Assembly: GCA_037442485.1 (NCBI GenBank)
Contig: JBBIQE010000005.1
Span: 1 to 58,683, forward strand
Direction: 5' to 3'
Source: Candidatus Methylomirabilis sp.
GTDB taxonomy: Bacteria > Methylomirabilota > Methylomirabilia > Methylomirabilales > 2-02-FULL-66-22
Length of the DNA stretch: 58,683 nucleotides
A program made the translations under genes and the position numbers. The first letter of the stretch is position 1. Each line of letters starts with the position of its first letter. The notes under the pieces were generated by a model that worked only from the letters and a program-made list of their open reading frames with translations, made no database searches and had not been told where the DNA came from. Of this stretch, positions 12,483 through 58,673 are shown piece after piece.

Positions 12483-13652
12483 TCACTGCACCGGCGGCGT
12501 GATGACCTCGGGATTGTTCACCACGCCCTGCCGCCGGAACTTGCCGTCCTTGACGATCTGGAACTGCACCGGCTTGACCACCTCGCCCTTGACGAAGCGG
12601 CTGATCTTGCCGGTCAGGCCGTTGTAGTCCTTGGTTTCGAGCAGGGCCTTGATGACGGCCTTCCGATCGGTGCTCCCCGCGCGCTGGATGGCATTCACCA
12701 GGATCATGAAGGCGTCGTAGCTGCTGGCCCCCACCATGTCGGGGTCAATCCCATAGGCGGCCTTGTAGTTCTTGAGGAAGTTCTGCACCACGGGCCGGGG
12801 ATCATCCCGATCCAGGTTGGTGGCAATGATCACCCCCTCCGCGTCCTTCCCCGCCAGCTCGATGAACTTGGGGGAGTCGAATCCCTCCTCGCCCAGGATC
12901 TGGACGGTGATCCCCAGCTCCTTCGCCTGGCGCACGATCAGGGCGGCCTCGTTGTAGTAGCCCGCGGCGAAGATCAGGTCGGGCTTGGCCTCCTTGATGC
13001 GGGTGAGGAATGGGCGGAAGTCCTTCTCGCCCGGAAACTTGTACACCTGCTGGGCCGCAAGCGTGGCCCCGAGCTTCTCGGCCCGCTTGATGAATCCGGC
13101 CGAGATCTCCCGACCGAAGTCGTTGTCCATGTAGATGACGGCCGGACGCTTTGCCTTCAGGACCTTGACGGCGTACTCGCCCGCCGCCGCACCCTCGACT
13201 TGGCCCAGGAATCCGTTGCGGAAGTTCGACTCGCCCGCCTTGGTGACGTCGGGGTGGACGGCATAACCCGCCACCATGGGGACGCCGGCCTTGGCAAAGA
13301 TGGGGGCGGTCACGCGCGTCGGCCCACTGTAGGAGCCGCTGACCACCCCGACCACCTGGTCCTTCTCGATCAGCTTGTTCGCGATGGCCACCGCCTCCTG
13401 CGGGCTGAAGCGATCGTCGTAAACGATCAGCTCCACTTTCTTGCCCGTGATCCCGCCGGCCCCGTTCACCTCTTTCAGGCCCAGTTCCACCGCGTGCTGG
13501 GCGCTGGCGCCATCCGCGGCCGCCGGGCCGGTGATCGGCGCGAAGAAGCCGATCTTGATCGTCTCCTGGGCCAGGGCCGGGGCGGCCGCCAGGAGAACGA
13601 CCGCGGTCAGTGCAAGCAGCTTTCCCATTCCCCTTCCAGCGTTGTGGTCCAT
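12483..13652 (-). CDS. LIV-type (family 4) periplasmic substrate-binding protein
   Basis: Signal peptide LLALTAVVLLAAAPALA. IKIGFFAPITGPAAADGASAQHAVELGLKEVNGAGGI is typical of Leu/Ile/Val-binding family proteins. ATG 13652 is preceded by AAGGAGGAG. Confidence 0.85.
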   Translation of the reverse strand: MDHNAGRGMGKLLALTAVVLLAAAPALAQETIKIGFFAPITGPAAADGASAQHAVELGLKEVNGAGGITGKKVELIVYDDRFSPQEAVAIANKLIEKDQVVGVVSGSYSGPTRVTAPIFAKAGVPMVAGYAVHPDVTKAGESNFRNGFLGQVEGAAAGEYAVKVLKAKRPAVIYMDNDFGREISAGFIKRAEKLGATLAAQQVYKFPGEKDFRPFLTRIKEAKPDLIFAAGYYNEAALIVRQAKELGITVQILGEEGFDSPKFIELAGKDAEGVIIATNLDRDDPRPVVQNFLKNYKAAYGIDPDMVGASSYDAFMILVNAIQRAGSTDRKAVIKALLETKDYNGLTGKISRFVKGEVVKPVQFQIVKDGKFRRQGVVNNPEVITPPVQ

Positions 13653-33423: not shown

Positions 33424-34305
33424 TCACCTCGCCGCCTCGCCCCGGCCCCCGAGGAGCTGATCGAGGGGCGAGCGGGTCTCGCGCGGCGCCCAGGTCCCGC
33501 GCACCCAGGCGTAGGCCGGGTCGTCCGACGCCTGCATGCTCCGGACATCGCCGGCCAGGACATTCAGGTAGTAGCAGTGATACCCGGGGGCGACCGCCAC
33601 CGGGTGATAGCCCTCGCGGATCAGGACCAGGTCGTTGTCCCGGACCGTCAGGGTCTCGTCCACGCGGCCGTCGCCGGTGTAGAGGCGCTGGAGGGCGAAG
33701 CCGTCGGGGTGGCTCAACTTGTAATAGTAGGTCTCCTCCAGCTTCACCTCGCGGGGGGGATCGTGCCGGTCGTGCTTGTGGGGCGGATAGCTCGACCAGT
33801 TGCCGCTGGGCGTATAGACCTCGACGATCAGCAACCGGTGGGCGGGGAATTCCGGCTTCAGCAGGTGGACGATCCGCCGCGTGGCGTTCCGTCCGCCCCG
33901 GATCTCGACCTCCACATCCGGGGGCGAGATCAGGCGCGCCGGGAAGTCCCGGTCGGTCCGGGCGCTGCAGAGGGCGACCTCCAGGGGCCTCGTCGCCCGC
34001 AGCGCATAGGCGGTCCGTCGCGGCAGGTAGAGGGCGTGGGGCAGGCCGTCGAAGACGGTCGGTCGCTCTCCCAGGCCCTTCCAGGTTCCGGCCGTGGACT
34101 GCACGTCGCACTGGCCTCCCAAAACGACCAGGGCGGTCTCGTGATCCCCGGTCTCTGCCGACAGCGTTTCCCCGGGCCGAAGGGCCCGGACCCCGAAGCC
34201 GATGTAGCGCCAGGCCGCGCGCTCGGGACTCACCGAGTGGATCTCGCCCGCCCCCTCCGGCCCCAGGCGGTTCCCGTGAATCAGCGGATCAATCCTGGTC
34301 GTCAT
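33424..34305 (-). CDS. iolB: 5-deoxy-glucuronate isomerase-like (KduI/IolB family cupin)
   Basis: VYTPSGNWSSYPPHKHDRHDPPREVKLEETYYYK is the IolB signature region. ATG 34305 is preceded by GGGAGG. Confidence 0.8.
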   Translation of the reverse strand: MTTRIDPLIHGNRLGPEGAGEIHSVSPERAAWRYIGFGVRALRPGETLSAETGDHETALVVLGGQCDVQSTAGTWKGLGERPTVFDGLPHALYLPRRTAYALRATRPLEVALCSARTDRDFPARLISPPDVEVEIRGGRNATRRIVHLLKPEFPAHRLLIVEVYTPSGNWSSYPPHKHDRHDPPREVKLEETYYYKLSHPDGFALQRLYTGDGRVDETLTVRDNDLVLIREGYHPVAVAPGYHCYYLNVLAGDVRSMQASDDPAYAWVRGTWAPRETRSPLDQLLGGRGEAAR

Positions 34306-34466
34306 GGTGTGACCTCCCGCGGCCTCCCGCGCCTCCCTGTCCTGCGGCCTCCACGCCCCCCGGGCTGTGGCGGTGGCCTGCACGATAGCACAGCGGATGC
34401 CCATCCGGCCAATGCCAATCGCGCGCGGGGGTCGGCGGCTCACAGGATGCCGGGGCCTCCATCCGC

Positions 34467-34495
34467 TTGCCCTCGGCCGCGCCTTCGTGCATAAT
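34467..34495 (+). promoter_or_regulatory. possible sigma70-type promoter for the ferritin operon
   Basis: TTGCCC - 17 nt - CATAAT, about 100 nt upstream of ATG 34594. This is a by-eye match only. Confidence 0.25.
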
Positions 34496-34593
34496 GGCGC
34501 CGCCCCCGGGCGGTCGCCCTTGCCGGGGGCCGATTCCCTCCCGTGAGCCGTGCGTGCCACAGACCTTGCGATACAGAAAGGAGAGAGCGGGCC

Positions 34594-35091
34594 ATGCTCA
34601 GTCAAGCGATGCAGGAGGCGCTCAACGCGCAGATCAGTGCCGAGATCAGCTCCGCCTACCTGTACCTGTCCATGGCGGCGTACTGCGCGGCCAGCAACCG
34701 CCCGGGGTGCGCCCACTGGATGCGCGTGCAGTGGCAGGAAGAGCTGGGCCATGCCCTGAAGCTGTTCGACCACATCCACGACCGGGGCGGGCGCGCCGTC
34801 CTCAAGGCCATCCCCCAGCCGGCCACGGAGTTCACGTCGCTCCTGGATGTCTTCCGGCAGGTCCTGGATCATGAACGGGACGTGACCGCGAGGATCCACC
34901 GGCTCTACGAGACGGCGGTCAAGGAGAACGATTACCCGGCCCAGGTCATGCTGCAGTGGTTCATCACCGAACAGGTGGAGGAGGAGAAGACGGCCGCCGA
35001 GGTCCTGGAGCAGCTCAAGCTGATCGGCGACCAGGGGCCCGCCGTGATCATGCTGGACCACCACCTGGGGATGCGCAAGGCGGGGGAGTAG
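34594..35091 (+). CDS. non-haem ferritin
   Basis: LNAQISAEISSAYLYLSMAAY...WQEELGHALKLFDHI...LQWFITEQVEEEK carries the ferroxidase-centre pattern of bacterial Ftn. AAAGGAGAG precedes the ATG. Confidence 0.9.
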   Translation: MLSQAMQEALNAQISAEISSAYLYLSMAAYCAASNRPGCAHWMRVQWQEELGHALKLFDHIHDRGGRAVLKAIPQPATEFTSLLDVFRQVLDHERDVTARIHRLYETAVKENDYPAQVMLQWFITEQVEEEKTAAEVLEQLKLIGDQGPAVIMLDHHLGMRKAGE

Positions 35092-41255: not shown

Positions 41256-42038
41256 CTACTCCGCCAGCCACCGCTTCAGGTAGGCCAGGGCGCGGGGGAT
41301 GCCGGTGGCCTCGGCCTCCTCCGCCTCGTACTCGAAGCTCACCCAGCCGTCATAGCCCGCCCGGCGAAGCGCGGGGATGATCCGGGCGTAATCCACGCTC
41401 TCGTCCGAGCCGTCGGCCGCGACCCTCCAGAACTTGGCGTGCACGTGCGCCGCGAGGCGGAGGGTCTTTTCCACGGAGGGCCACCCGTCGGTGAAGTTGC
41501 CGGTGTCGAGCAGCGGGGTCAGGTGGGGGGAGTGGACCTCCTCCAGGACCCGCAGGTACTCGGCCGCGGTCGGCGTGAAGGCGCCGTGGTTGTGGTTCTC
41601 CAGGCCCAGACGGATCCCCGCGTGGCCGGCGAAGGCGGCGACGTCCCGGAGACTGTCGACCATGGCGGGCCAGCGCGGCCCCCTCTGCGCGGGGCCGCCC
41701 TCGGGGTAGCCGGCGAAGACGCGGAGGAGGGGCGCGCCGAGCTGCTCGGCCACCTCGACCCACTGCTTGACCTTCACCACCTCGCTCTGCCGGAGGGTGG
41801 GATCGGCCCGCCCGAAGTCGTTGTGGACGCCGATGCCGATGATGGTGAGGCCATGGTCCCGGGCGGTCCGTCGGAGCATCCGGAGGTAGGCCGGGCGTGT
41901 CTGGGGGAAATGAATGTCCTGCAGTTCCACCCCCTGAACCCCGAGCTCGGTGGCGCAGCGGGCGAGGAACCGGACCTGGTCCATTGTCCCGGCCTCGAAG
42001 GAGCGGTTGAAGGTGCCGCAGATGCAGCCGAGCTTCAT
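41256..42038 (-). CDS. sugar phosphate isomerase/epimerase (xylose-isomerase-like TIM barrel)
   Basis: GVQGVELQ...LRVFAG...GIRLGLENH...PLLDTGNF...HVHAKF. ATG 42038 is preceded by GGAGGA. Confidence 0.85.
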   Translation of the reverse strand: MKLGCICGTFNRSFEAGTMDQVRFLARCATELGVQGVELQDIHFPQTRPAYLRMLRRTARDHGLTIIGIGVHNDFGRADPTLRQSEVVKVKQWVEVAEQLGAPLLRVFAGYPEGGPAQRGPRWPAMVDSLRDVAAFAGHAGIRLGLENHNHGAFTPTAAEYLRVLEEVHSPHLTPLLDTGNFTDGWPSVEKTLRLAAHVHAKFWRVAADGSDESVDYARIIPALRRAGYDGWVSFEYEAEEAEATGIPRALAYLKRWLAE

Positions 42039-42066
42039 GGCACGAGTCCTCCCCAATCCGAAATTA

Positions 42067-42215
42067 TCAACCGCCAAGGCGCCAAGAACGCCAGGCCCGA
42101 CATGGCGCATTTGCAGGAAACGCACGAAACTTCTGAATGCCTCCTGAACCGGTTTTCGCGTTCTTCACTGGAGGGATCGGAAACACCAGCTCCTTGGCGT
42201 CATGGCGGTTCAAGG
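42067..42215. repeat. long imperfect palindromic intergenic element, family 2
   Basis: The left arm TCAACCGCCAAGGCGCCAAGA matches the reverse complement of the right arm CCTTGGCGTCATGGCGGTTCA at 17 of 21 positions. The inner arms GGAAACGCACGAAAC and GGTTTTCGCGTTCTTC are also partly complementary. Confidence 0.4.
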
Positions 42216-42226
42216 CTCCTTTTGGA

Positions 42227-43117
42227 TCATGGTCCTTTCGGCGGCACGATGCCCTTGAGGGCGTGCAGCACCTGTTCGTGCAGACGGGGGTTGGCGCTGC
42301 ACACCAGGCTGTAGACCGCATGGATGTCCGGGCGAAACCGGACCGGGGATCCGTCCCAGCCGGTGACGACGCAGCCCGCCCGCTCCGCAATGGGGAGGGC
42401 GGAGAAGACCTCGGTCAGCGCCTCGTTCCAGGCGAAGTAGACGTCGATCCGCCCGCAGGCCACATCCGCGAAGCCGTTGGGGCCGCCGTTCGGCAGGATG
42501 AACTTGGCCCGCTCGAAGAGGGGGCGGAGGGCGCTCGCCGTGGGATACAGAAAGGCCGGCTTGCCCAGGTACGCCTCCAGGACGGCGCCGTCCAGGCTGG
42601 CCGTGGCGGCCGGCCGGACAGGGACGGCGCGGGCGCCCGGGCGGGCGATCCGGACGGCGCCGTCGGCATCCGCCAGGACGATCTCGCCGGTGATGTGGTC
42701 AATCGTGCCCGCCGCCCGAGGCGTTTCATCCAGGCCGTAGATCCCGAGGGCCGTGAACCAGTGGGCGCGGATGCCGCGCCGGTACAGCAGGCTCCCGTCG
42801 AAGGGGTCCGCGACGACGTACACCACCTCGTGGCGCGGGGGGGCGCCGCGCCGCTCCCCCAACCGCGCCTCCCCGGCCTCTTCGGAGAGGAGTGTCGCCC
42901 GGACCCCGCCCCGCCTCAGGGCGTTGATGATGGCGCGCTCCGCCGCCGTGTCCACCCCGATGACCTCGGGGTCCCACGGGCGGTAGCCCGCTTCCCGGCC
43001 GGCCACCACCCGTTGGCCCGCGCGCGGCGCCAGCCGGCGGACCGCGGCGTTGGCGGCAAGCAACCCGTCCCGGACCTTCCGCCGCCAGGGAAAAGGGGTC
43101 TTCCGCCTTCCGGTCAT
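42227..43117 (-). CDS. IMPase/FBPase-superfamily phosphatase-like protein
   Basis: VVADPFDGS (DPxDG[ST]-like motif) and overall fold-family look. Divergent. Confidence 0.65.
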   Translation of the reverse strand: MTGRRKTPFPWRRKVRDGLLAANAAVRRLAPRAGQRVVAGREAGYRPWDPEVIGVDTAAERAIINALRRGGVRATLLSEEAGEARLGERRGAPPRHEVVYVVADPFDGSLLYRRGIRAHWFTALGIYGLDETPRAAGTIDHITGEIVLADADGAVRIARPGARAVPVRPAATASLDGAVLEAYLGKPAFLYPTASALRPLFERAKFILPNGGPNGFADVACGRIDVYFAWNEALTEVFSALPIAERAGCVVTGWDGSPVRFRPDIHAVYSLVCSANPRLHEQVLHALKGIVPPKGP

Positions 43118-49409: not shown

Positions 49410-49410
<1 letters not shown>

Positions 49411-50207
49411 CAGGACCTCCGGGATGCCGCCCTGACGGGCTGGCGGTTCAGGGCCGTGATCAGATGGCGATGAATGCGGCCGTTACTGGCGAGGATGGTC
49501 GGCTGCTCCAGGGCGAAGGGGCGGCCCGCGCCGTCCGTGACGCGCCCGCCTGCTTCCCGCACCAGGAGGGCCCCCGCGGCCACGTCCCAGGGACGGGCGC
49601 TCTGCTCCCAGTAGGCGTCCAGCCGCCCGGCCGCGACGTAGGCCAACGAGAAGCCGGCGCCGAAGATGCGGACGTTCCGCACCCGGAGGGCCAGCCGGGC
49701 GATCCGCTCGCGTAAGGGCCGGTCGCGCCAGACCGAGTCGTCCTGCCAGAGGGCGACCACACACTCGATGAGGCGCCGCCTGGCCGATACCCGGATCCGG
49801 CGGCCGTTCAGCCAGGCCCCCCGCCCCCGCTCTGCCACGAACAGCTCTCCCAGCCGGGGCAGCAGGATCACGCCCGCCTCTACGCGCCCCTGCCGCTCCA
49901 GGGCGATGGAGACGGCGAAGCAGGGCAGGCCGCTCAGGAAGGCGAGCGTGCCGTCCAGCGGATCCGCGATCCAACGGCCATCCGGCCCGTCGGCGCTGCT
50001 GCCCTCCTCGCCGACAAATCCGATGCGCGGGAAGCGGCGCGCCAGGGTGACGCGAATGCAGCGCTCCGCGGCCACGTCCGTCCTCGTGACGGGGTCCTTT
50101 ACCCCCTTGAGGCGGACGGCCCGCACACGGCCGAAGTGGCGGAGGAGGATCTCACCCGCCGCCTCGGCCGCCTCGATGGCCGCCCGGGTCTCGGACCAAA
50201 ACCTCAT
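49410..50207 (-). CDS. inositol monophosphatase-family protein
   Basis: IADPLDGTLAFL and RPWDVAAGALLVREAGG are canonical IMPase motifs. ATG 50207; the ORF-track start at 50213 is a TTG. Confidence 0.85.
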
Positions 50208-50209
50208 TT

Positions 50210-50381
50210 GCAAACGTTCAGCCCGTCCATGCTGCCGAGTTGGCCTCTTCCTGCGTCTTCATTCCGGCAGAAGCCGGAATCCAGGGCGCCGGAATTTCTC
50301 GACCCCGGCGCCTGCCCCGGACTCCGATCCGGGGTTCGCCGGAGTGACAACGTGGGATGCGGCCCGAGTCTGAACGTTTAC
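50210..50381. mobile_element. MITE-like palindromic element with an 8-bp target-site duplication
   Basis: The terminal inverted repeats are GCAAACGTTCAG and CTGAACGTTTAC (11 of 12 positions). They are flanked by direct CCTCATTT at 50202-50209 and 50382-50389. There are three internal stem-loops: ATTCCGGC/GCCGGAAT, GCGCCGG/CCGGCGC and CCCCGG/CCGGGG. Confidence 0.6.
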
Positions 50382-50383
50382 CC

Positions 50384-51463
50384 TCATTTCAGCGGCCGCT
50401 TGATGGCCTTGAAGATCTGGTGGAGCAGGGCGATGTCGCCCCGGGCTTCTTCCGGCGTCGTGATGGGGGGTTTCCCTTGCTGCACGCACGCGGCAAAGTG
50501 CAGCAGCTCCTCCTTGAACGCCTCCTGCATGGAGGCGATGACCCGCTTCTCGAAGGGCTTGCCATCCTCCATCCCTTCCACGATGACGGGCGTGGGCATG
50601 TTGCGGAAGAACGGGGAGGGGAAGACCAGCCGGACCCGGTCGGCCTTGCCGTAGTAGGCGACGGTCTCCTCGTAGTGGGCCAGGTCCCAGAGGTAGTGCA
50701 GGCTGATGACGGCCCGGACGCCGGAGGCGTAGCGCAGGCAGGTCATCAGACTGTCGCCCCCGGCCCAGACGTCGGTGTAGAGCACCTCGGCGGGATCCCC
50801 CGAGAGCCCCCGCAGGAGGTTGATGTCGTGGACCAGGGTGGACAGGAGATTCTCGGCGAATACGCGGCGCTCGAGCGGGGTAAACTCGCCGATCGCCTCC
50901 CGGATGAGCTGATCCTGCTCGGCCCGGAGCGTGGCCCGAGCTGCCTCGGGGACGTCCGGGAAGCGGCGGACGTCGTGGTGGCCGATCTGGTTCGCCTCGG
51001 AGGGGTGCAGGACGGTGATGTGGATCGCCTGGAGATCCTTCATCTTCTGGATGATCGGCTGGGCATAGCGGAAGCCGGGATCGTACCGCTTCATGTAGGT
51101 CACCATGCACACGGTCCCGGCCCGCTGGTGGGCGGCCAGGATCTCGTCCGCCTCCCGAAGCGTGTAGCACATCGGCTTCTCGGTGAAGACGTGCTTCCCC
51201 GCCTTGAGGGCGTCCAGGATGACCTTCCCGTGGGAGTCGGCGGAGAGGACCACCACCACGTCCAGCGACTCCTTCAGCAGGTCGCGGTAGTCCGTGAACC
51301 GCTGGCTCACCCCGTAGTAGTCGCCCACGTACTTCAAGGTTCCTGGCGACACGTCGCAGAGCGCCACGACCTCGAACAACTCGTGCAGCTCCCTCAGGTG
51401 GGGCAGGTGCATGACCTGGGCGATCAATCCGCATCCGATGACTCCGACTCGCATGCGACTCAT
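50384..51463 (-). CDS. Gfo/Idh/MocA-family oxidoreductase
   Basis: MRVGVIGCGLIAQVMHLPHL...HVFTEKPM is a Rossmann plus EKP motif. Confidence 0.9.
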   Translation of the reverse strand: MSRMRVGVIGCGLIAQVMHLPHLRELHELFEVVALCDVSPGTLKYVGDYYGVSQRFTDYRDLLKESLDVVVVLSADSHGKVILDALKAGKHVFTEKPMCYTLREADEILAAHQRAGTVCMVTYMKRYDPGFRYAQPIIQKMKDLQAIHITVLHPSEANQIGHHDVRRFPDVPEAARATLRAEQDQLIREAIGEFTPLERRVFAENLLSTLVHDINLLRGLSGDPAEVLYTDVWAGGDSLMTCLRYASGVRAVISLHYLWDLAHYEETVAYYGKADRVRLVFPSPFFRNMPTPVIVEGMEDGKPFEKRVIASMQEAFKEELLHFAACVQQGKPPITTPEEARGDIALLHQIFKAIKRPLK

Positions 51464-52374: not shown

Positions 52375-52617
52375 TCAGTCGGCGGCGACCTCCGCGCCCA
52401 GGACGCGGCGGCGGCCCAGCCAGTGGGCGGGCAGGATACAGGCCGCCAGGACCAGGATCAGCAGCGTGGACAGGGCGGCCCCGCGTCCGATGGTCCCGTA
52501 CTCCGCCCACGAGAGGATGAGGACCGTCACCAGGTCGTGGCCCGGCGAGACCAGGAAGATGACCTGGCTCACGGCCGTCATGGCCCGGACGAAACTGTAG
52601 ATTTCGTAACGCGCTCA
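52375..52617 (-). pseudogene. 3' fragment of an ABC transporter permease gene
   Basis: ARYEIYSFVRAMTAVSQVIFLVSPGHDLVTVLILSWAEYGTIGRGAALSTLLILVLAA matches only the last two helices of iron/PotB-type permeases. The frame is closed by a stop at 52618-52620, exactly where base composition changes. Confidence 0.6.
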
Positions 52618-52637
52618 TCCTGCACTGCCCATTCTTC

Positions 52638-53066
52638 CTATTTCTTCTCGAGCCGATATGTTCCCGTGGAGCTACTCTTCTGGTATTTGTATTCGCCCTG
52701 CATTACTCTTCCACCCTCTTCCAGCCAGACGGTGTCCATTCTCTTGTCACCGGGGAAATCGTCGCCAGGAAAGATAGCCCGACCCCTTTGGTCAGCCCGG
52801 CCAACCGCTTGCCACTTGGAGGTCAACCGACCCACTTCATAAAAGGAACCTTTTAGTTGATTGGTGGCCGAGTCGAGTTCAATGACGACCCCTATCAATC
52901 CTGTGTTGCCCCTTGCGCTTCTCCAGGTTCCGGACCAATTACCCTCAAAGGCCCTCAGCTGTTCGATCTGGGCAGAAGGCCCCTGACCCAAGGCGGTCAC
53001 GGGTCCGATTACCAAAGAGCCAAAGGTCATTGTCAGGACGAGCAGAGGAAATGAGGTGTTCCGCAT
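52638..53066 (-). CDS. hypothetical secreted protein
   Basis: Signal peptide MRNTSFPLLVLTMTFGSLVIGPVTALG. Lower-GC codon usage. No family recognised. Confidence 0.5.
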   Translation of the reverse strand: MRNTSFPLLVLTMTFGSLVIGPVTALGQGPSAQIEQLRAFEGNWSGTWRSARGNTGLIGVVIELDSATNQLKGSFYEVGRLTSKWQAVGRADQRGRAIFPGDDFPGDKRMDTVWLEEGGRVMQGEYKYQKSSSTGTYRLEKK

Positions 53067-53256
53067 CTTTGTCCCCCCTTCGCTTGCCTAAATCTCAAAT
53101 GAGTTGGAGCGCGCTTCAGTCCGCCAAGTCAGAAATGCAATGTGATGAAATCTCGGCGAGACGCTGACATTAAATTCCAAAGTGGCCTACCGGTATGATC
53201 AAGGACCGCTCGCGCTGTGCCCACATCCGGGGGTATCAGTCCGAGCAATGATTTCA

Positions 53257-53902
53257 TCACCTCCCTCTGATTTTTGGTGGGGCGATTTCGGCAACGAATC
53301 CCACCTGGTCACCGATCCAGAGGATACGGGTCAGAGGATACGCCATCTTTGCCGATTGGAAGGGGGGCGTACCCCGCGTGTAGGTAAGGACCAGCTCAGG
53401 ACCGGTTACTCTATCGAGCAGATATCCACCCATCGGTTCGAGGCGTTCCGGAGCCCTGATGCCTGGTTGGACCTGGGCTTGACGGTGCTGGGGAAGCAGG
53501 GCAGGCCCCGGGACTTCCTCGGACCAGTAGGCGTCTGAGATCTCCCGCACCCAGAATTGAAAGTCGGCCTTCCAGCGGTCATCGCTCACCCGAATCATGT
53601 AGAAAAAAAGCGGCGGTGCGACCGCTTTCCAGATTCGTTCGGTTCAGAATCAGTCGCTCCGTCGTCAGATAAACCTTTATGATAGGCCAGCCGAGGGCTT
53701 TCTCTCGCTCATCCGGGCTCAGGGTGATAGGGTTCTTGGCGAAGAGAGGGGTTGCTCTGAGAAAATTGACCATTTCATCTTCGGCACCTCTCGCTACCTC
53801 GGCGTTGATCCCCTCTAGGGTCAGCAGAGAGAGAGCGGAGGTACGGCTTGCCAATCTAGGCAGAAAGGTGCGCTTCATCCTGAGACCCCCGATGATGTTC
53901 AT
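53257..53902 (-). pseudogene. hypothetical protein split by a frameshift at an A7 (T7 on the coding strand) tract
   Basis: ORFs 53579..53902 and 53257..53598 overlap. Removing one base of the run at 53603-53609 joins ...GRTAAFF to YMIRVSDDRWKADF... as one protein of about 215 aa. Confidence 0.4.
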
Positions 53903-53933
53903 TCCTGTTGGCTCGAAAAGGTCCCATGCTCAT

Positions 53934-54407
53934 TCACCGATCTTCGCTGACCTCTGGCCCGACGCCCAAATCCACCGGACTGGAAATCCGCCGTAGCCAG
54001 GGAACCCTATCGAAATCCGGATCCAGGCTAGCGATGTCCCTTATCCCATGTTCCCTTGCAAGAAGGGCGATAAGCGCATCATGGAAGTTCAGTTTCCCCC
54101 CAGAAACGGAGACCAAATCCAGCACGGCGGAGAACAACCGTTCGATCTCTCGGGAAACCCATACGGGAGGATGCCTCTCCACGAAGGCGCGATATCGGCT
54201 GAAGAGCAGCGTCCATTCGTCCTGCTTTCTCCGCTCCTCACAGCGCCGAGCCAGCACGGAGATTGTCTCATTGGCAACGCAGTCTAGAAAGAGGAGGGAA
54301 GCTTCGACTTGTTCCAGTGACTTCCAGAGCGCGAGTGCAACAGCCCGCTGGCTATCCCGCTCGTCGATTCTGGCAACGACAATGCTGGTATCGATAATGA
54401 TCCTCAT
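53934..54407 (-). CDS. PIN-domain toxin (VapC-like)
   Basis: MRIIIDTSIVV..., ...NFHDALIALLA..., ...SLDPDFD (PIN acidic residues). It overlaps the upstream small gene by 4 nt. Confidence 0.8.
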   Translation of the reverse strand: MRIIIDTSIVVARIDERDSQRAVALALWKSLEQVEASLLFLDCVANETISVLARRCEERRKQDEWTLLFSRYRAFVERHPPVWVSREIERLFSAVLDLVSVSGGKLNFHDALIALLAREHGIRDIASLDPDFDRVPWLRRISSPVDLGVGPEVSEDR

Positions 54408-54613
54408 TCATAGAGTCTCTCTGTGTCCTCGACCGCATCCCCCCCCCACGCGACGATGGCGTCCAGCTCGCGAAAAGCCGAGGCTGGAATGCCGACCCAA
54501 TCTTTCTCTTCCCCAGGAAACAGGACGTATGCCTCCGAACCCTCTGGAACTTGGGGATCTTCGGCGAACCGAACGACTCCCCTCTCATAGACACCCTTTA
54601 CTGCTTTCGCCAT
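54404..54613 (-). CDS. DUF104/AF2212-like antitoxin
   Basis: VKGVYERGVVRFAEDPQVPEGSEAYVLF fits the DUF104 pattern (..YenGv..l.e...lpEG..v.v). It lies upstream of, and overlaps, the PIN gene. Confidence 0.6.
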   Translation of the reverse strand: MAKAVKGVYERGVVRFAEDPQVPEGSEAYVLFPGEEKDWVGIPASAFRELDAIVAWGGDAVEDTERLYE

Positions 54614-54807
54614 CCCTGTTCCTCCCCCCTGTCATGACCAAATAGAGGTCGGTCTACGTTTCTCCCCTTGACCCATCAGGATCGCCATTTCAGTCAGAGC
54701 ACTTCGTAACACGCGCCACTTGCGAAGTCAACCCTCGCGAGGGGAACCAGGGCTCGCGCCCGGACCCTCGGGACTGTACGAACTGTAAAGCAGTTGCTGC
54801 CCGGGTA

Positions 54808-56118
54808 TCATCCGATCACCTGATCCAGATTCGCGAAGACCCGCTGGAACGCCTCCACGTAGTCGCGCATCAGCTCCATCGGCTGGGGGAACAGGGGATG
54901 CGAATGCGAGCCCACAACCAGCGAGTCATTGAGCAGCTTCAGCGTTTCAGGATACTCGGTGAGGTCGTACTTCACCTCCTCGCCCAGGGGGCATTGCCAG
55001 GGGCAGGCGAGGCCATAGCCCGTGCGTTCCTGGAACAGGGTCTGGCCCGGGACGGGCACGGTCTGCCACAGGCTCACCTCGACCCCCTCGGCCTTGAGCG
55101 CGGCCAGCACCTTGAGCCGGAACTCTCGCGCCGGCAGGGTGACGCCCGCGGCGCGGGGATCCAGCCGGATGCGGTACTGGTAGAAGCTGGACGTGCAATC
55201 GGGCGGGACGTAGGGCGGGGTGATGCCCGGGATCTTCGCGAGCTGCTCCGTGAGGTAGGCGGCGTTGCGCCGCGTGTTGGCCAGGGAGTCGTCGAGGCGC
55301 CGGAGCTGGCTGCGGCACAGGGCCGCGGTCAGTTCGTTCGTCCGGTACATCCACCCCATCATGAGCGAGTTGTACTCCCGCACCCCGTCCAGGGGCCGGG
55401 CGGGATCGAAGGCCCTCCGGTCGCTCTCGCGGATGTCCTCGCCGAACATGCGGAACATGTTCCCCCGGTCCCGAAGCTCCTCGCGGTTCGTCACGAAGAT
55501 CCCGCCTTCGCCGGCGGGCAGGTTCTTGCTGCCCTGGAAGGAGAAGCAGCCCATGTCCCCGATGCCGCCGACCTTCCTGCCCTTGTACGTCGAGCCGTGA
55601 GCCTGCGCCGCATCCTCGATCACCAGGAGGCCGTGCTTCCTGGCGATGGCCAGGATGGGGTCCATGTCGGCGGGCAGGCCATGGATGTGCACCGGGATGA
55701 TAGCCCGGGTCCGGGAGGTGATCCGTTCCTCGATCTTCGCCGGGTCCATGTTGTAGGTGCGGGGGTCGATGTCCACGAAGACGGGCACGGCGTTCTGCTG
55801 CAGCACCGCCAGGGCCGTGGCCAGGAAGGTGAAGGCCGTCGTGATGACCTGATCGCCGGTGCCGATGCCGCCGGCCGCCACCGCGGTGTGCAGCGCGGCC
55901 GTGCCGCTGTTGGTGCTGAGCGCGTACTTCACCCCGCAGTAGCGCGCCCATTCCTCCTCCAGGGCCTTGACCTGGGGGGCGTAGGGACCGTTGAGGATGC
56001 CGGAATCCAGGGCGGCGGCCACGGCGGCCTTGTCCTCCGGGGTGATGACGGGCCAGCGGACGTGCAGGGCCTTGCGAACGACCGGGGAACCGCCCCGGAG
56101 GGCCAGGGTGTCTTTCAT
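54808..56118 (-). CDS. DegT/DnrJ/EryC1/StrS-family PLP aminotransferase
   Basis: ALSTNSGTAALHTAV...IIPVHIHG...DAAQAHG...CFSFQGSKNLPAGEGG (PLP-lysine region). Confidence 0.9.
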   Translation of the reverse strand: MKDTLALRGGSPVVRKALHVRWPVITPEDKAAVAAALDSGILNGPYAPQVKALEEEWARYCGVKYALSTNSGTAALHTAVAAGGIGTGDQVITTAFTFLATALAVLQQNAVPVFVDIDPRTYNMDPAKIEERITSRTRAIIPVHIHGLPADMDPILAIARKHGLLVIEDAAQAHGSTYKGRKVGGIGDMGCFSFQGSKNLPAGEGGIFVTNREELRDRGNMFRMFGEDIRESDRRAFDPARPLDGVREYNSLMMGWMYRTNELTAALCRSQLRRLDDSLANTRRNAAYLTEQLAKIPGITPPYVPPDCTSSFYQYRIRLDPRAAGVTLPAREFRLKVLAALKAEGVEVSLWQTVPVPGQTLFQERTGYGLACPWQCPLGEEVKYDLTEYPETLKLLNDSLVVGSHSHPLFPQPMELMRDYVEAFQRVFANLDQVIG

Positions 56119-57421: not shown

Positions 57422-58673
57422 TGAGAGTGAGTCATTCTACGCAGCCGCTTGGGCTGCCTCCTGCATGCGAAGCGCGGCCTCGAATTCCTGTGGGCTCCGG
57501 TAGCCGAGCGCCGAGTGCACGTACCGCTGGGTGTCGTCCACCGCGATCCCCTGGGCGATGACCTCCCGCGCCGCCTCCAGGCTCGTGCACTCCCGCAGCC
57601 AGAGCCGCTCTTCCTCGATCGTCCGCATCAGCCGCTCGGTTTCGGCGTTGCCCTTCGGGTTATCAGAGCTGGTGAAGACCTGCTCGATCCCCAACCGGCT
57701 CAGGGTGGCCATGAACCGGGTCGCGGTCGGTTGGCTCCCGTTGTCGGAGACCAGCCTCAGCCCGGCCCCCCGCCCCCCCTGCGGGCATGCGGCCTGGACC
57801 GCCTGGGCCCGGGCCGCCTCCCACTCCTGCCGGCGGCTGCGGAGGGCCAGGTTCCAGCCGACGATCTTCTTCGGGTACCCGTCCCGCCCGATGCCCACGG
57901 ACGCCCAGCCCAGGGCGGGGAGCAGGCACGTCGTCCTGTCGATCCCCCCGTACGGCCGGGGCCGGGTGGCCGTCGGCTGCGCCTGGGGCGTCCGCGGCGC
58001 GGTATGAGGCGCCCGCTTGAGGGTCCAGCCGGCCGCCCGCATCAGCCGGTACCCCCGCTTCGTATGGACGCGGAGCCCCTCCCGGTACCGCAGCCCGGCC
58101 CACACCCGCCGGGTACCCGCTTTGCGGGTGCCCAGAAGGGATGGGCCTCCGGGATCGGGCGGAGCCGCGCCCGGAGCGCCGCATCGGGGGGATTCGGCAG
58201 GGCCGCCGGCACCGGGCGCTCTTGCCGAGCGGCCTAGGAGCCGCTCCGGGACAGCCCGAGGATCCGGCAGGCTGCCGCCACCGACCACCCGGCCTCCCGC
58301 AGCGCGTCCACCGGGGCCACCGCCGCCCGACCAGTTCGTCGGTTTTTTTTAACAGCTCAATGGCCACGGCTTGTTTGCCGATGAGACGCTGGAGCGTCTC
58401 GATCTCGCGCCGGAGCGCCTCCTCCGTGTTCGGGATCCCATGGGTCACGGCCCGCGGGCCCCCTTCCAGGAAGCGATCCCGCCACTGGTCGGACTGGGTC
58501 TGAGCACTCTGATGCTCCCGGCAAAGCTCGGCGACCGGTTTGGCCCCCTTCAGTCCCTCCAGCACGATGGCGAGCTTCTCCTCGGCGGTCCACTTGCGCC
58601 CCTTCATCTTGGACACCTCCTTCGGTCAGTGTTGCATCCTCCGCACTCACTCTCGAACGTGTCCACTCTCTCA
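57422..58673 (-). mobile_element. IS3-family insertion sequence (decayed)
   Basis: orfA HTH (KWTAEEKLAIVLEGL..AELCREH) is followed by an A8 slippery run and then an orfB rve/DDE core (..SDNGSQPTATRF..DNPKGNAETERL). The ends read TGAGAG...CTCTCA with flanking GGGGG on both sides. An inner 10-bp inverted repeat GAGAGTGAGT lies at 57423-57432 and 58645-58654. Confidence 0.75.
57437..58616 (-). pseudogene. IS3 transposase orfAB with extra lesions
   Basis: After a -1 shift at T8 58343-58350 (A AAA AAA on the coding strand), the orfB frame reads VDALREAGWSVAAACRILGLSRSGS then TAG (58234-58236). A further 1-nt shift near 58131-58134 is needed to reach RRVWAGLRYREGLRVHTKRGYRLMR. Confidence 0.7.

Follow-up and report, generated by a model that had tools for sequence, protein, structure and literature searches.

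A stretch of 58,683 nucleotides from a Candidatus Methylomirabilis genome (assembly GCA_037442485.1, contig JBBIQE010000005.1), hereafter called the window, has a GC content of 68% and carries an operon in which a 172-bp non-coding element (50210-50381) lies between two intact genes. The upstream gene (50384-51463) encodes a Gfo/Idh/MocA-family oxidoreductase of 359 amino acids, Gfo for short (Pfam PF01408, E = 1.3e-23), and the downstream one (49410-50207) an inositol-monophosphatase (IMPase) family protein of 265 amino acids (PF00459, 201.8 bits, E = 2e-59), with a third-codon-position GC of 0.90, similar to that of the adjacent genes. All the relevant genes are on the minus strand, in the order xylose-isomerase-like TIM barrel, Gfo, element, IMPase, second Gfo, solute-binding protein, two permeases and ABC ATPase, and every gene of the operon is intact, including all those downstream of the element.

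The element, which is read here on the minus strand with the genes, ends in 12-bp terminal inverted repeats: GCAAACGTTCAG at 50210-50221 (plus strand) and, at 50370-50381, the plus-strand sequence CTGAACGTTTAC, i.e. GTAAACGTTCAG on the coding strand, which forms the 5′ end of the element in the mRNA. The two repeats differ at one position out of 12. Directly outside them stands a perfect 8-bp direct repeat, CCTCATTT (50202-50209 and 50382-50389), which on the coding strand reads AAATGAGG. The right copy contains the TGA stop codon of Gfo (50386-50384) and the left copy the ATG of IMPase (50207-50205); the database gene call for IMPase (P0121) is 265 amino acids long and therefore uses this ATG. 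Three hairpins, given here on the plus strand, occupy the interior: hairpin 1, TCATTCCGGCAGAAGCCGGAATCCAG (50258-50283, stem 50261-50268 / 50273-50280), hairpin 2, GGCGCCGG...CCGGCGCC (50285-50312), and hairpin 3, CCCCGGA CTCCGA TCCGGGG (50315-50334). A repeat search independently recovered the direct repeat, a 10-bp perfect core of the inverted repeats, and hairpins 1 and 2, while all three hairpins are visible in a local fold (50261-50280, 50285-50312 and 50315-50334). A preliminary description, based on the letters of the window alone, had proposed an inserted element with one-mismatch inverted repeats, flanking 8-bp repeats and three hairpins, one repeat copy supplying the Gfo stop and the other the IMPase start, and both reading frames left intact. 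Its coordinates proved exact, its allocation of stop and start agrees with the gene coordinates and with P0121, and the integrity of the two frames is borne out by their Pfam matches and uninterrupted length.

Folded as a whole, the coding strand of the element forms a single long hairpin of -91.7 kcal/mol (z = -4.9 relative to dinucleotide shuffles; z = -4.5 for the opposite strand), the arms of which pair well past the terminal repeats. The 12-mer of the terminal repeat, with at most one mismatch, occurs three times in the window against 0.09 expected; a near-match at 13419 was rejected as an extra copy, being inside a binding-protein gene. A count of 12-bp inverted repeats (at most one mismatch) placed 40-600 bp apart, with an exact 8-bp direct repeat immediately outside them, gave exactly one case in the real window, the element itself, and two in total in 200 Markov-simulated windows, i.e. 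about 0.01 per window. A six-frame peptide search with the element found no genuine protein relatives, and Rfam matched no family in the element region or in the whole window. We also considered whether the terminal repeats could be LacI/PurR-type operators, and dropped the idea, each repeat fitting only one half-site (TGCAAAC).

Comparison with contigs carrying Gfo homologues of the window gene (84-99% identity; the named ones include Methylomirabilota / candidate division NC10) provided both empty and filled sites. The preliminary description had proposed a search for empty orthologous sites, and four were obtained, with the junctions CTGAAATGACGCTCTGG in L024 (Gfo protein 89% identical), CTGCTATGACGCTCTGG, also written CTGCTATGACG, in L025 (89%), GGGATGATGG in L044 (90%) and GCATGATGG in L047 (84%). 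In all four, the Gfo stop and the next start share an ATGA at exactly the predicted position and the spacer is absent; in L048 and L049 the gene coordinates indicate the same 4-nt overlap. With the element and one of the two repeat copies taken out, the window sequence becomes CTGAAATGAGGTTTTGG, which restores the ATGA junction as had been claimed, and the junction octamer matches that of L024 at 7 of 8 positions. A filled site was found in L023, a contig of an independent Logan assembly (SRR11582146) with a Gfo protein 99% identical to that of the window: the insertion is at the identical site, the same octamer being followed by GTAAACGTTCGGACTCGG..., and the contig stops within the element. 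A search through IMPase homologues for the remainder of this copy gave no homologue of more than 85% identity in the database. Because this second assembly has the same insertion at the same site, the insertion is not an assembly artefact, and since the sites are empty at around 90% identity and filled in the 99% relative, the sequences indicate that it is derived, a single event that would have occurred after the split from the ~90%-identity lineages and before the 99% pair diverged. In the ancestor, IMPase and Gfo translation was presumably coupled through the ATGA overlap. Comparison of the window with L023 gives 8 differences over 118 element positions; the gene has 12 over 1080, and four-fold degenerate sites have 7 over 188. 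The element has therefore drifted at about the neutral rate, or somewhat faster, since the shared insertion. Four of the eight changes are in hairpin loops of the three-hairpin fold and others preserve pairing, e.g. A-U to G-U and G-U to G-C; from a single pairwise comparison, this hints at constraint on the stems and no more.

[quoted passage not shown] We thus consider it very likely that what landed in the ATGA junction is a MITE-type DNA transposon, non-autonomous and moved by cut and paste; mobilization by an IS66-like enzyme and a lowered output of IMPase are what we infer in addition. In a Methylomirabilota (NC10/Rokubacteria-like) bacterium, the element inserted into the octamer AAATGAGG, which ancestrally spanned the ATGA overlap of the Gfo/Idh/MocA and IMPase genes in a sugar/inositol operon. 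Staggered cleavage followed by repair duplicated the octamer, the upstream copy retaining the TGA and the downstream copy the ATG, so that both reading frames remained whole. Judging from the GTAAACG... termini and the 8-bp duplication, the enzyme that mobilized the element, acting in trans, may have been an IS66-family transposase. This is a known kind of event, which introduces no new mechanism and does not overturn current understanding. The added detail is that a stop and a start overlap within the octamer that was duplicated, and both genes were thereby repaired automatically; the locus offers a clean natural example of a target-site duplication that rescues both genes when a transposon strikes such an overlap.

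The preliminary description had also called for a search for other copies, and this was successful in one respect: a homologous element was found at an unrelated locus in another organism, while none came from the window or from the collection scans described below. It was reached by running phmmer with the element's fully open frame on 1.84 billion representative proteins, which gave one relevant match, P0244 (74 amino acids, 65% identical, E = 3.6e-4). The contig of this match, L050 (GCA_040961595.1), shows that the 'protein' is a spurious open reading frame (ORF) over a 161-bp element (1995-2155) located between a NAD kinase gene and the next gene. The L050 element ends in GTAAGCATTCAC... 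and GTAATCATTCAC..., at greater length GTAAGCATTCACTTATGAGGGG and, with the other end reverse-complemented, GTAATCATTCACGTACGCGGGGG, and its inverted repeats match at about 18 of 22 positions. The cores of the two elements align through a near-identical hairpin 1 and a block GACCCCGG.GC.TGCCCCGGAC.CCGATCCGGGGTTCGCCGG.GTGAC; hairpin 3 falls in the best-conserved block of the alignment, with only a few mismatches, and at the position of hairpin 2 there is a hairpin of different sequence. The global alignment scores 123; shuffles reach 19.4 +/- 5.8, and the reverse orientation 36. As in the window element, the L050 fold has a terminal stem that closes three hairpins (z = -7.4). Positions 7 and 12 of the terminal repeat differ between the two elements, and they do so concertedly at both ends, as would be expected if both ends must fit one transposase. 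These comparisons are good evidence for a real but sparsely sampled MITE family.

The same comparison bears on the alternative that fares best, namely that a full-length insertion sequence inserted here and then lost its interior by deletion in place, the element being its stump and so a one-off, not a member of a mobilizable family. A remnant of this kind would likewise show inverted repeats and a target duplication, and a single copy is known in this lineage. We nevertheless hold it improbable, because two independent deletions would not yield one small architecture, and the 161-bp element of L050, at an unrelated locus and in another organism, shares the ends, the core and the fold of the window element. 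Moreover, the arms pair past the terminal repeats, which is typical of MITEs and untypical of insertion-sequence ends.

As to the transposase behind a MITE of this type, the IS66 family has inverted repeats of 20-30 bp that start with GTAAGCG, and 8-bp direct repeats (PMC11946415), published examples of its ends being GTAAGCGTCCGG... and GTAACCGTCCGG... (PMC12888890). The window element resembles this family in the GTAA start of one end (GTAAACG against the consensus GTAAGCG) and in its 8-bp duplication (PMC11946415, PMC12888890), and differs from its members in that it is 172 bp long, encodes nothing and has a clean repeat of 12 bp. Its end heptamers agree with GTAAGCG at 6 of 7 (GTAAACG) and 5 of 7 positions (GCAAACG); those of the L050 element are GTAAGCA and GTAATCA. 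Members of the IS66 family are 2-3 kb long and encode TnpA/TnpB/TnpC, and IS6, ISL3 and IS256, further families with 8-bp duplications, end quite differently. The sole transposase gene in the window is a degraded IS3-family gene in two frames (57437-58616, minus strand), which is not the parent, because IS3 duplications are shorter and IS3 ends are TG...CA. This gene, at the end of the window, adjoins a LacI-family regulator; its OrfB reaches 95 bits where the cut-off is 160, and an OrfA-like N-terminus reaches 34-38 bits.

Several results weigh against the transposon interpretation, or against its IS66 component. One end of the window element has GCAA in place of GTAA, and its repeat is clean over 12 bp only, or ~16 bp with a bulge and a mismatch, which falls short of the 20-30 bp of IS66. 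There is no IS66-family transposase in the window, and the parent insertion sequence was not found in the genome and metagenome scans, which were aimed at the terminal-repeat pattern. In L050, the flanks CCTGAAGA and CCTCCAGA are identical at 6 of 8 positions, i.e. they make an imperfect duplication. A short-word BLAST for a second copy within the 58.7-kb window gave only chance matches of at most 16 nt. Scans of species-representative genomes and JGI metagenomes with the exact pattern AAACGTTCAG-N(135-165)-CTGAACGTTT gave 22 genome and 18 metagenome loci, which is about the number expected by chance, and none has the interior of the window element. The element was not matched in a plasmid collection, and a six-frame peptide query against 5.8 billion proteins returned nothing at E <= 10. 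The failures to find copies are weak negatives, however, because the window's own contig was not recovered either and its lineage is absent from those DNA collections. Searches of viral contigs were equally unproductive: the core block B TCCGGGGTTCGCCGG(A/G)GTGAC gave nothing, whether or not its upstream flank was included; hairpin 3 alone gave two unrelated hairpins only; and the terminal repeat plus hairpin gave nothing. A literature search for the terminal-repeat string gave unrelated papers only. On balance, we put mobilization of the window element by an IS66-family enzyme at about an even chance or slightly above, as far as its ends and duplication can tell.

A different mechanism altogether could be envisaged, in which an inner hairpin resembling a repetitive extragenic palindromic (REP) sequence or dRS3 was spread by a tyrosine or an IS200/IS110-type enzyme and the 8-bp repeat is incidental. 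It would account for the fact that hairpin 1 is a near-copy of a hairpin present in 27 viral contigs, often alone, and for the lack of obvious flanking duplications in other inverted-repeat families with AAACGTTCAG. But a perfect 8-bp duplication immediately flanks the inverted repeats of the window element, the reconstructed empty site is precise and fits the orthologues, and, to our knowledge, no 8-bp duplications are made by REP-type or IS110-type insertion, so we give this mechanism very little credence. Finally, strong structure and a location inside an operon could also suggest a native structured intergenic RNA, with direct repeats derived from conserved coding ends, or an assembly chimera, but this is contradicted already by the four orthologous loci, which have no spacer and only an ATGA overlap, and further by the lack of an Rfam match and by the presence of the insertion in two independent assemblies, and can practically be set aside.

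If the element is a transposon that came to separate two coupled genes, what are the consequences for expression? No sigma-70 promoter or intrinsic terminator consensus is present inside it, and because of this we expect that the operon is still transcribed through the element. In the mRNA, the Gfo stop and the IMPase start would then be separated by a very stable hairpin of 176 nt. In the folded mRNA of the filled allele, the stop lies 2 nt before, and the ATG 2 nt beyond, the base of the same terminal stem. In neither junction, filled or empty, does a suitably spaced Shine-Dalgarno sequence precede the IMPase ATG, and therefore ancestral IMPase must, we infer, have relied on coupling. By calculation, opening the IMPase start region (-18 to +12) costs 18.1 kcal/mol in the filled transcript versus 15.9 in the reconstructed empty one; with a ribosome footprint placed over the Gfo stop, the figure for the filled transcript drops from 18.1 to 10.2 kcal/mol. 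According to these models, translation of IMPase is probably reduced, though not necessarily abolished, because its start has no Shine-Dalgarno sequence and is 2 nt from the base of a hairpin. As the stem is unmasked, it may still depend in part on upstream translation: a ribosome finishing Gfo would melt the first helix turns and thereby free the strand just upstream of the IMPase ATG. The uncoupling of the two genes that the preliminary description had proposed could, on this calculation, be incomplete. We may go one step further, with a good deal of doubt, and speculate that the terminal stem keeps both genes coupled and that the insertion was tolerated at the junction for that reason. If true, it would mean that translational coupling outlasts a 176-nt insertion by means of RNA structure, and that MITE hairpins are unusually harmless at coupled gene junctions. 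With filled and empty alleles both in hand, the pair permits a direct test of the extent to which coupling rests on physical overlap and on local RNA unfolding.

Another reason for tolerance could lie in IMPase itself. In L024 (1783-2400) the IMPase gene is decayed, with an internal deletion of ~190 nt and a frameshift, and in L044 (3568-3730) it is reduced to a short ORF built from the two ends of the gene. IMPase thus seems dispensable in this operon, and the insertion would be easy to tolerate because of it. Elsewhere in the window (33424-35064 and 41256-43117) there are a KduI/IolB-family gene, a second xylose-isomerase-like TIM barrel and a second, divergent IMPase-family gene. These inositol genes upstream make the region a larger inositol/sugar utilization neighbourhood, and the possible IMPase paralogue may explain why the IMPase at the junction can be lost.

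Among described bacterial MITEs, Chunjie from Geobacter uraniireducens Rf4 (Chen et al. 2008, Genetics 179:2291) is a useful comparison. According to later accounts of it (PMC3184786, PMC10969869), Chunjie is 178-235 bp long and non-coding, and the window element is likewise small and non-coding; inverted repeats at the ends, direct repeats on the flanks and a very stable hairpin are common to the two. In the same accounts, Chunjie is A+T-rich, with 21-bp inverted repeats, 9-bp direct repeats and ~38 full copies in one genome (PMC3184786, PMC10969869). The window element, in contrast, is GC-rich, has 12-bp repeats, an 8-bp duplication and no known second copy in its genome, and its duplication regenerates an overlapping stop and start. 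The Correia element of Neisseria and ERIC (enterobacterial repetitive intergenic consensus) elements are found in or next to operons and are co-transcribed with them, and their hairpins can alter expression post-transcriptionally; mtrCDE transcripts with a Correia element undergo RNase cleavage (PMC10969869). The sequences and ends of these elements differ from those of the window element. With the latter, Methylomirabilota, a little-studied phylum, gains a small MITE family whose ends are IS66-like. We know of no MITEs described for this phylum, although no literature search was aimed at the point.

The scans also brought out other hairpins and inverted-repeat elements, unrelated families among them. 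A stand-alone hairpin, (C)GTCATTCCGGCGAAAGCCGGAATCCAG, of which hairpin 1 is nearly a copy, is present almost unchanged in 27 IMG/VR viral contigs (L051-L077), usually in intergenic positions just upstream of a ribosome-binding site. In three of these contigs (L054, L061 and L062) an inverted mate, CTGGA..CCGG......CCGG.GTGACG, accompanies it. By its sequence and distribution, the stand-alone hairpin looks like a widespread REP-like or dRS3-like unit. The dRS3 repeat of Neisseria is ATTCCC-N8-GGGAAT, and hairpin 1 (ATTCCGG-N6-CCGGAAT) has the same palindromic design, the resemblance being limited to this one internal module; in the literature, the related hairpin string appears in a Neisseria context only. 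Inverted-repeat elements 155-162 bp in length are found on ten Proteobacterial genome or metagenome contigs (L005, L010, L013, L026, L029, L032, L035, L037, L040 and L042). They end exactly in GTAAACGTTCAGCAGC.../...GCTGCTGAACGTTTAC, i.e. in the 12-nt terminus of the window element, and have an unrelated interior; no flanking duplication is apparent by eye, and some loci have several copies or half-copies. Integron attC sites were considered for these look-alikes and rejected, the conserved blocks being in the wrong order.

In Actinobacteria (Solirubrobacterales and similar), elements of ~160-165 bp with inverted ends GCAAAACGTTCAG(A/G)GG... were seen on L001, L011, L020 and L038. Their outer flanks are inverted repeats too and vary from copy to copy (TCCTCAGTC/GACTGAGGA, TCCTCCCGC/GCGGGAGGA, TCCTCCTCC/GGAGGAGGA and GCCAGCGGC/GCCGCTGGC), which looks like covariation in an outer stem; in three copies, such a stem would sequester a GGAGGA-like sequence. 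A palindromic element of ~160 bp is present in three copies on three contigs (L004, L007 and L021) of one Dehalococcoidia metagenome-assembled genome (CAXXBX01), with long inverted repeats (ATATCCGAAGAGAAACGTTCAGCGCGCCGTCTGG...) that include the AAACGTTCAG motif internally. Two other matches to the element peptide, P0241 and P0242, consist of 3-7 tandem repeats of the motif (L/R)(D/N)PG..(P/S)(G/S), e.g. ...LNPGSCSSSRGG... and ...RDPGSSPGIRGGV..., and are, to judge from this composition, probably translations of other hairpin-repeat arrays and not real proteins.

A low-GC island (52450-54850; 52-60% GC against 68% for the window as a whole) lies between a DegT-family aminotransferase gene and the TIM-barrel gene. 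It contains an ORF of 142 amino acids without a family match, the N-terminus of which is signal-peptide-like by eye, and another on the minus strand (53934-54407) that is PIN/VapC-like, again by eye. At the orthologous locus of L044, the Gfo gene comes directly after the aminotransferase, with no island between them, and the island of the window is for this reason taken as an insertion or a rearrangement.

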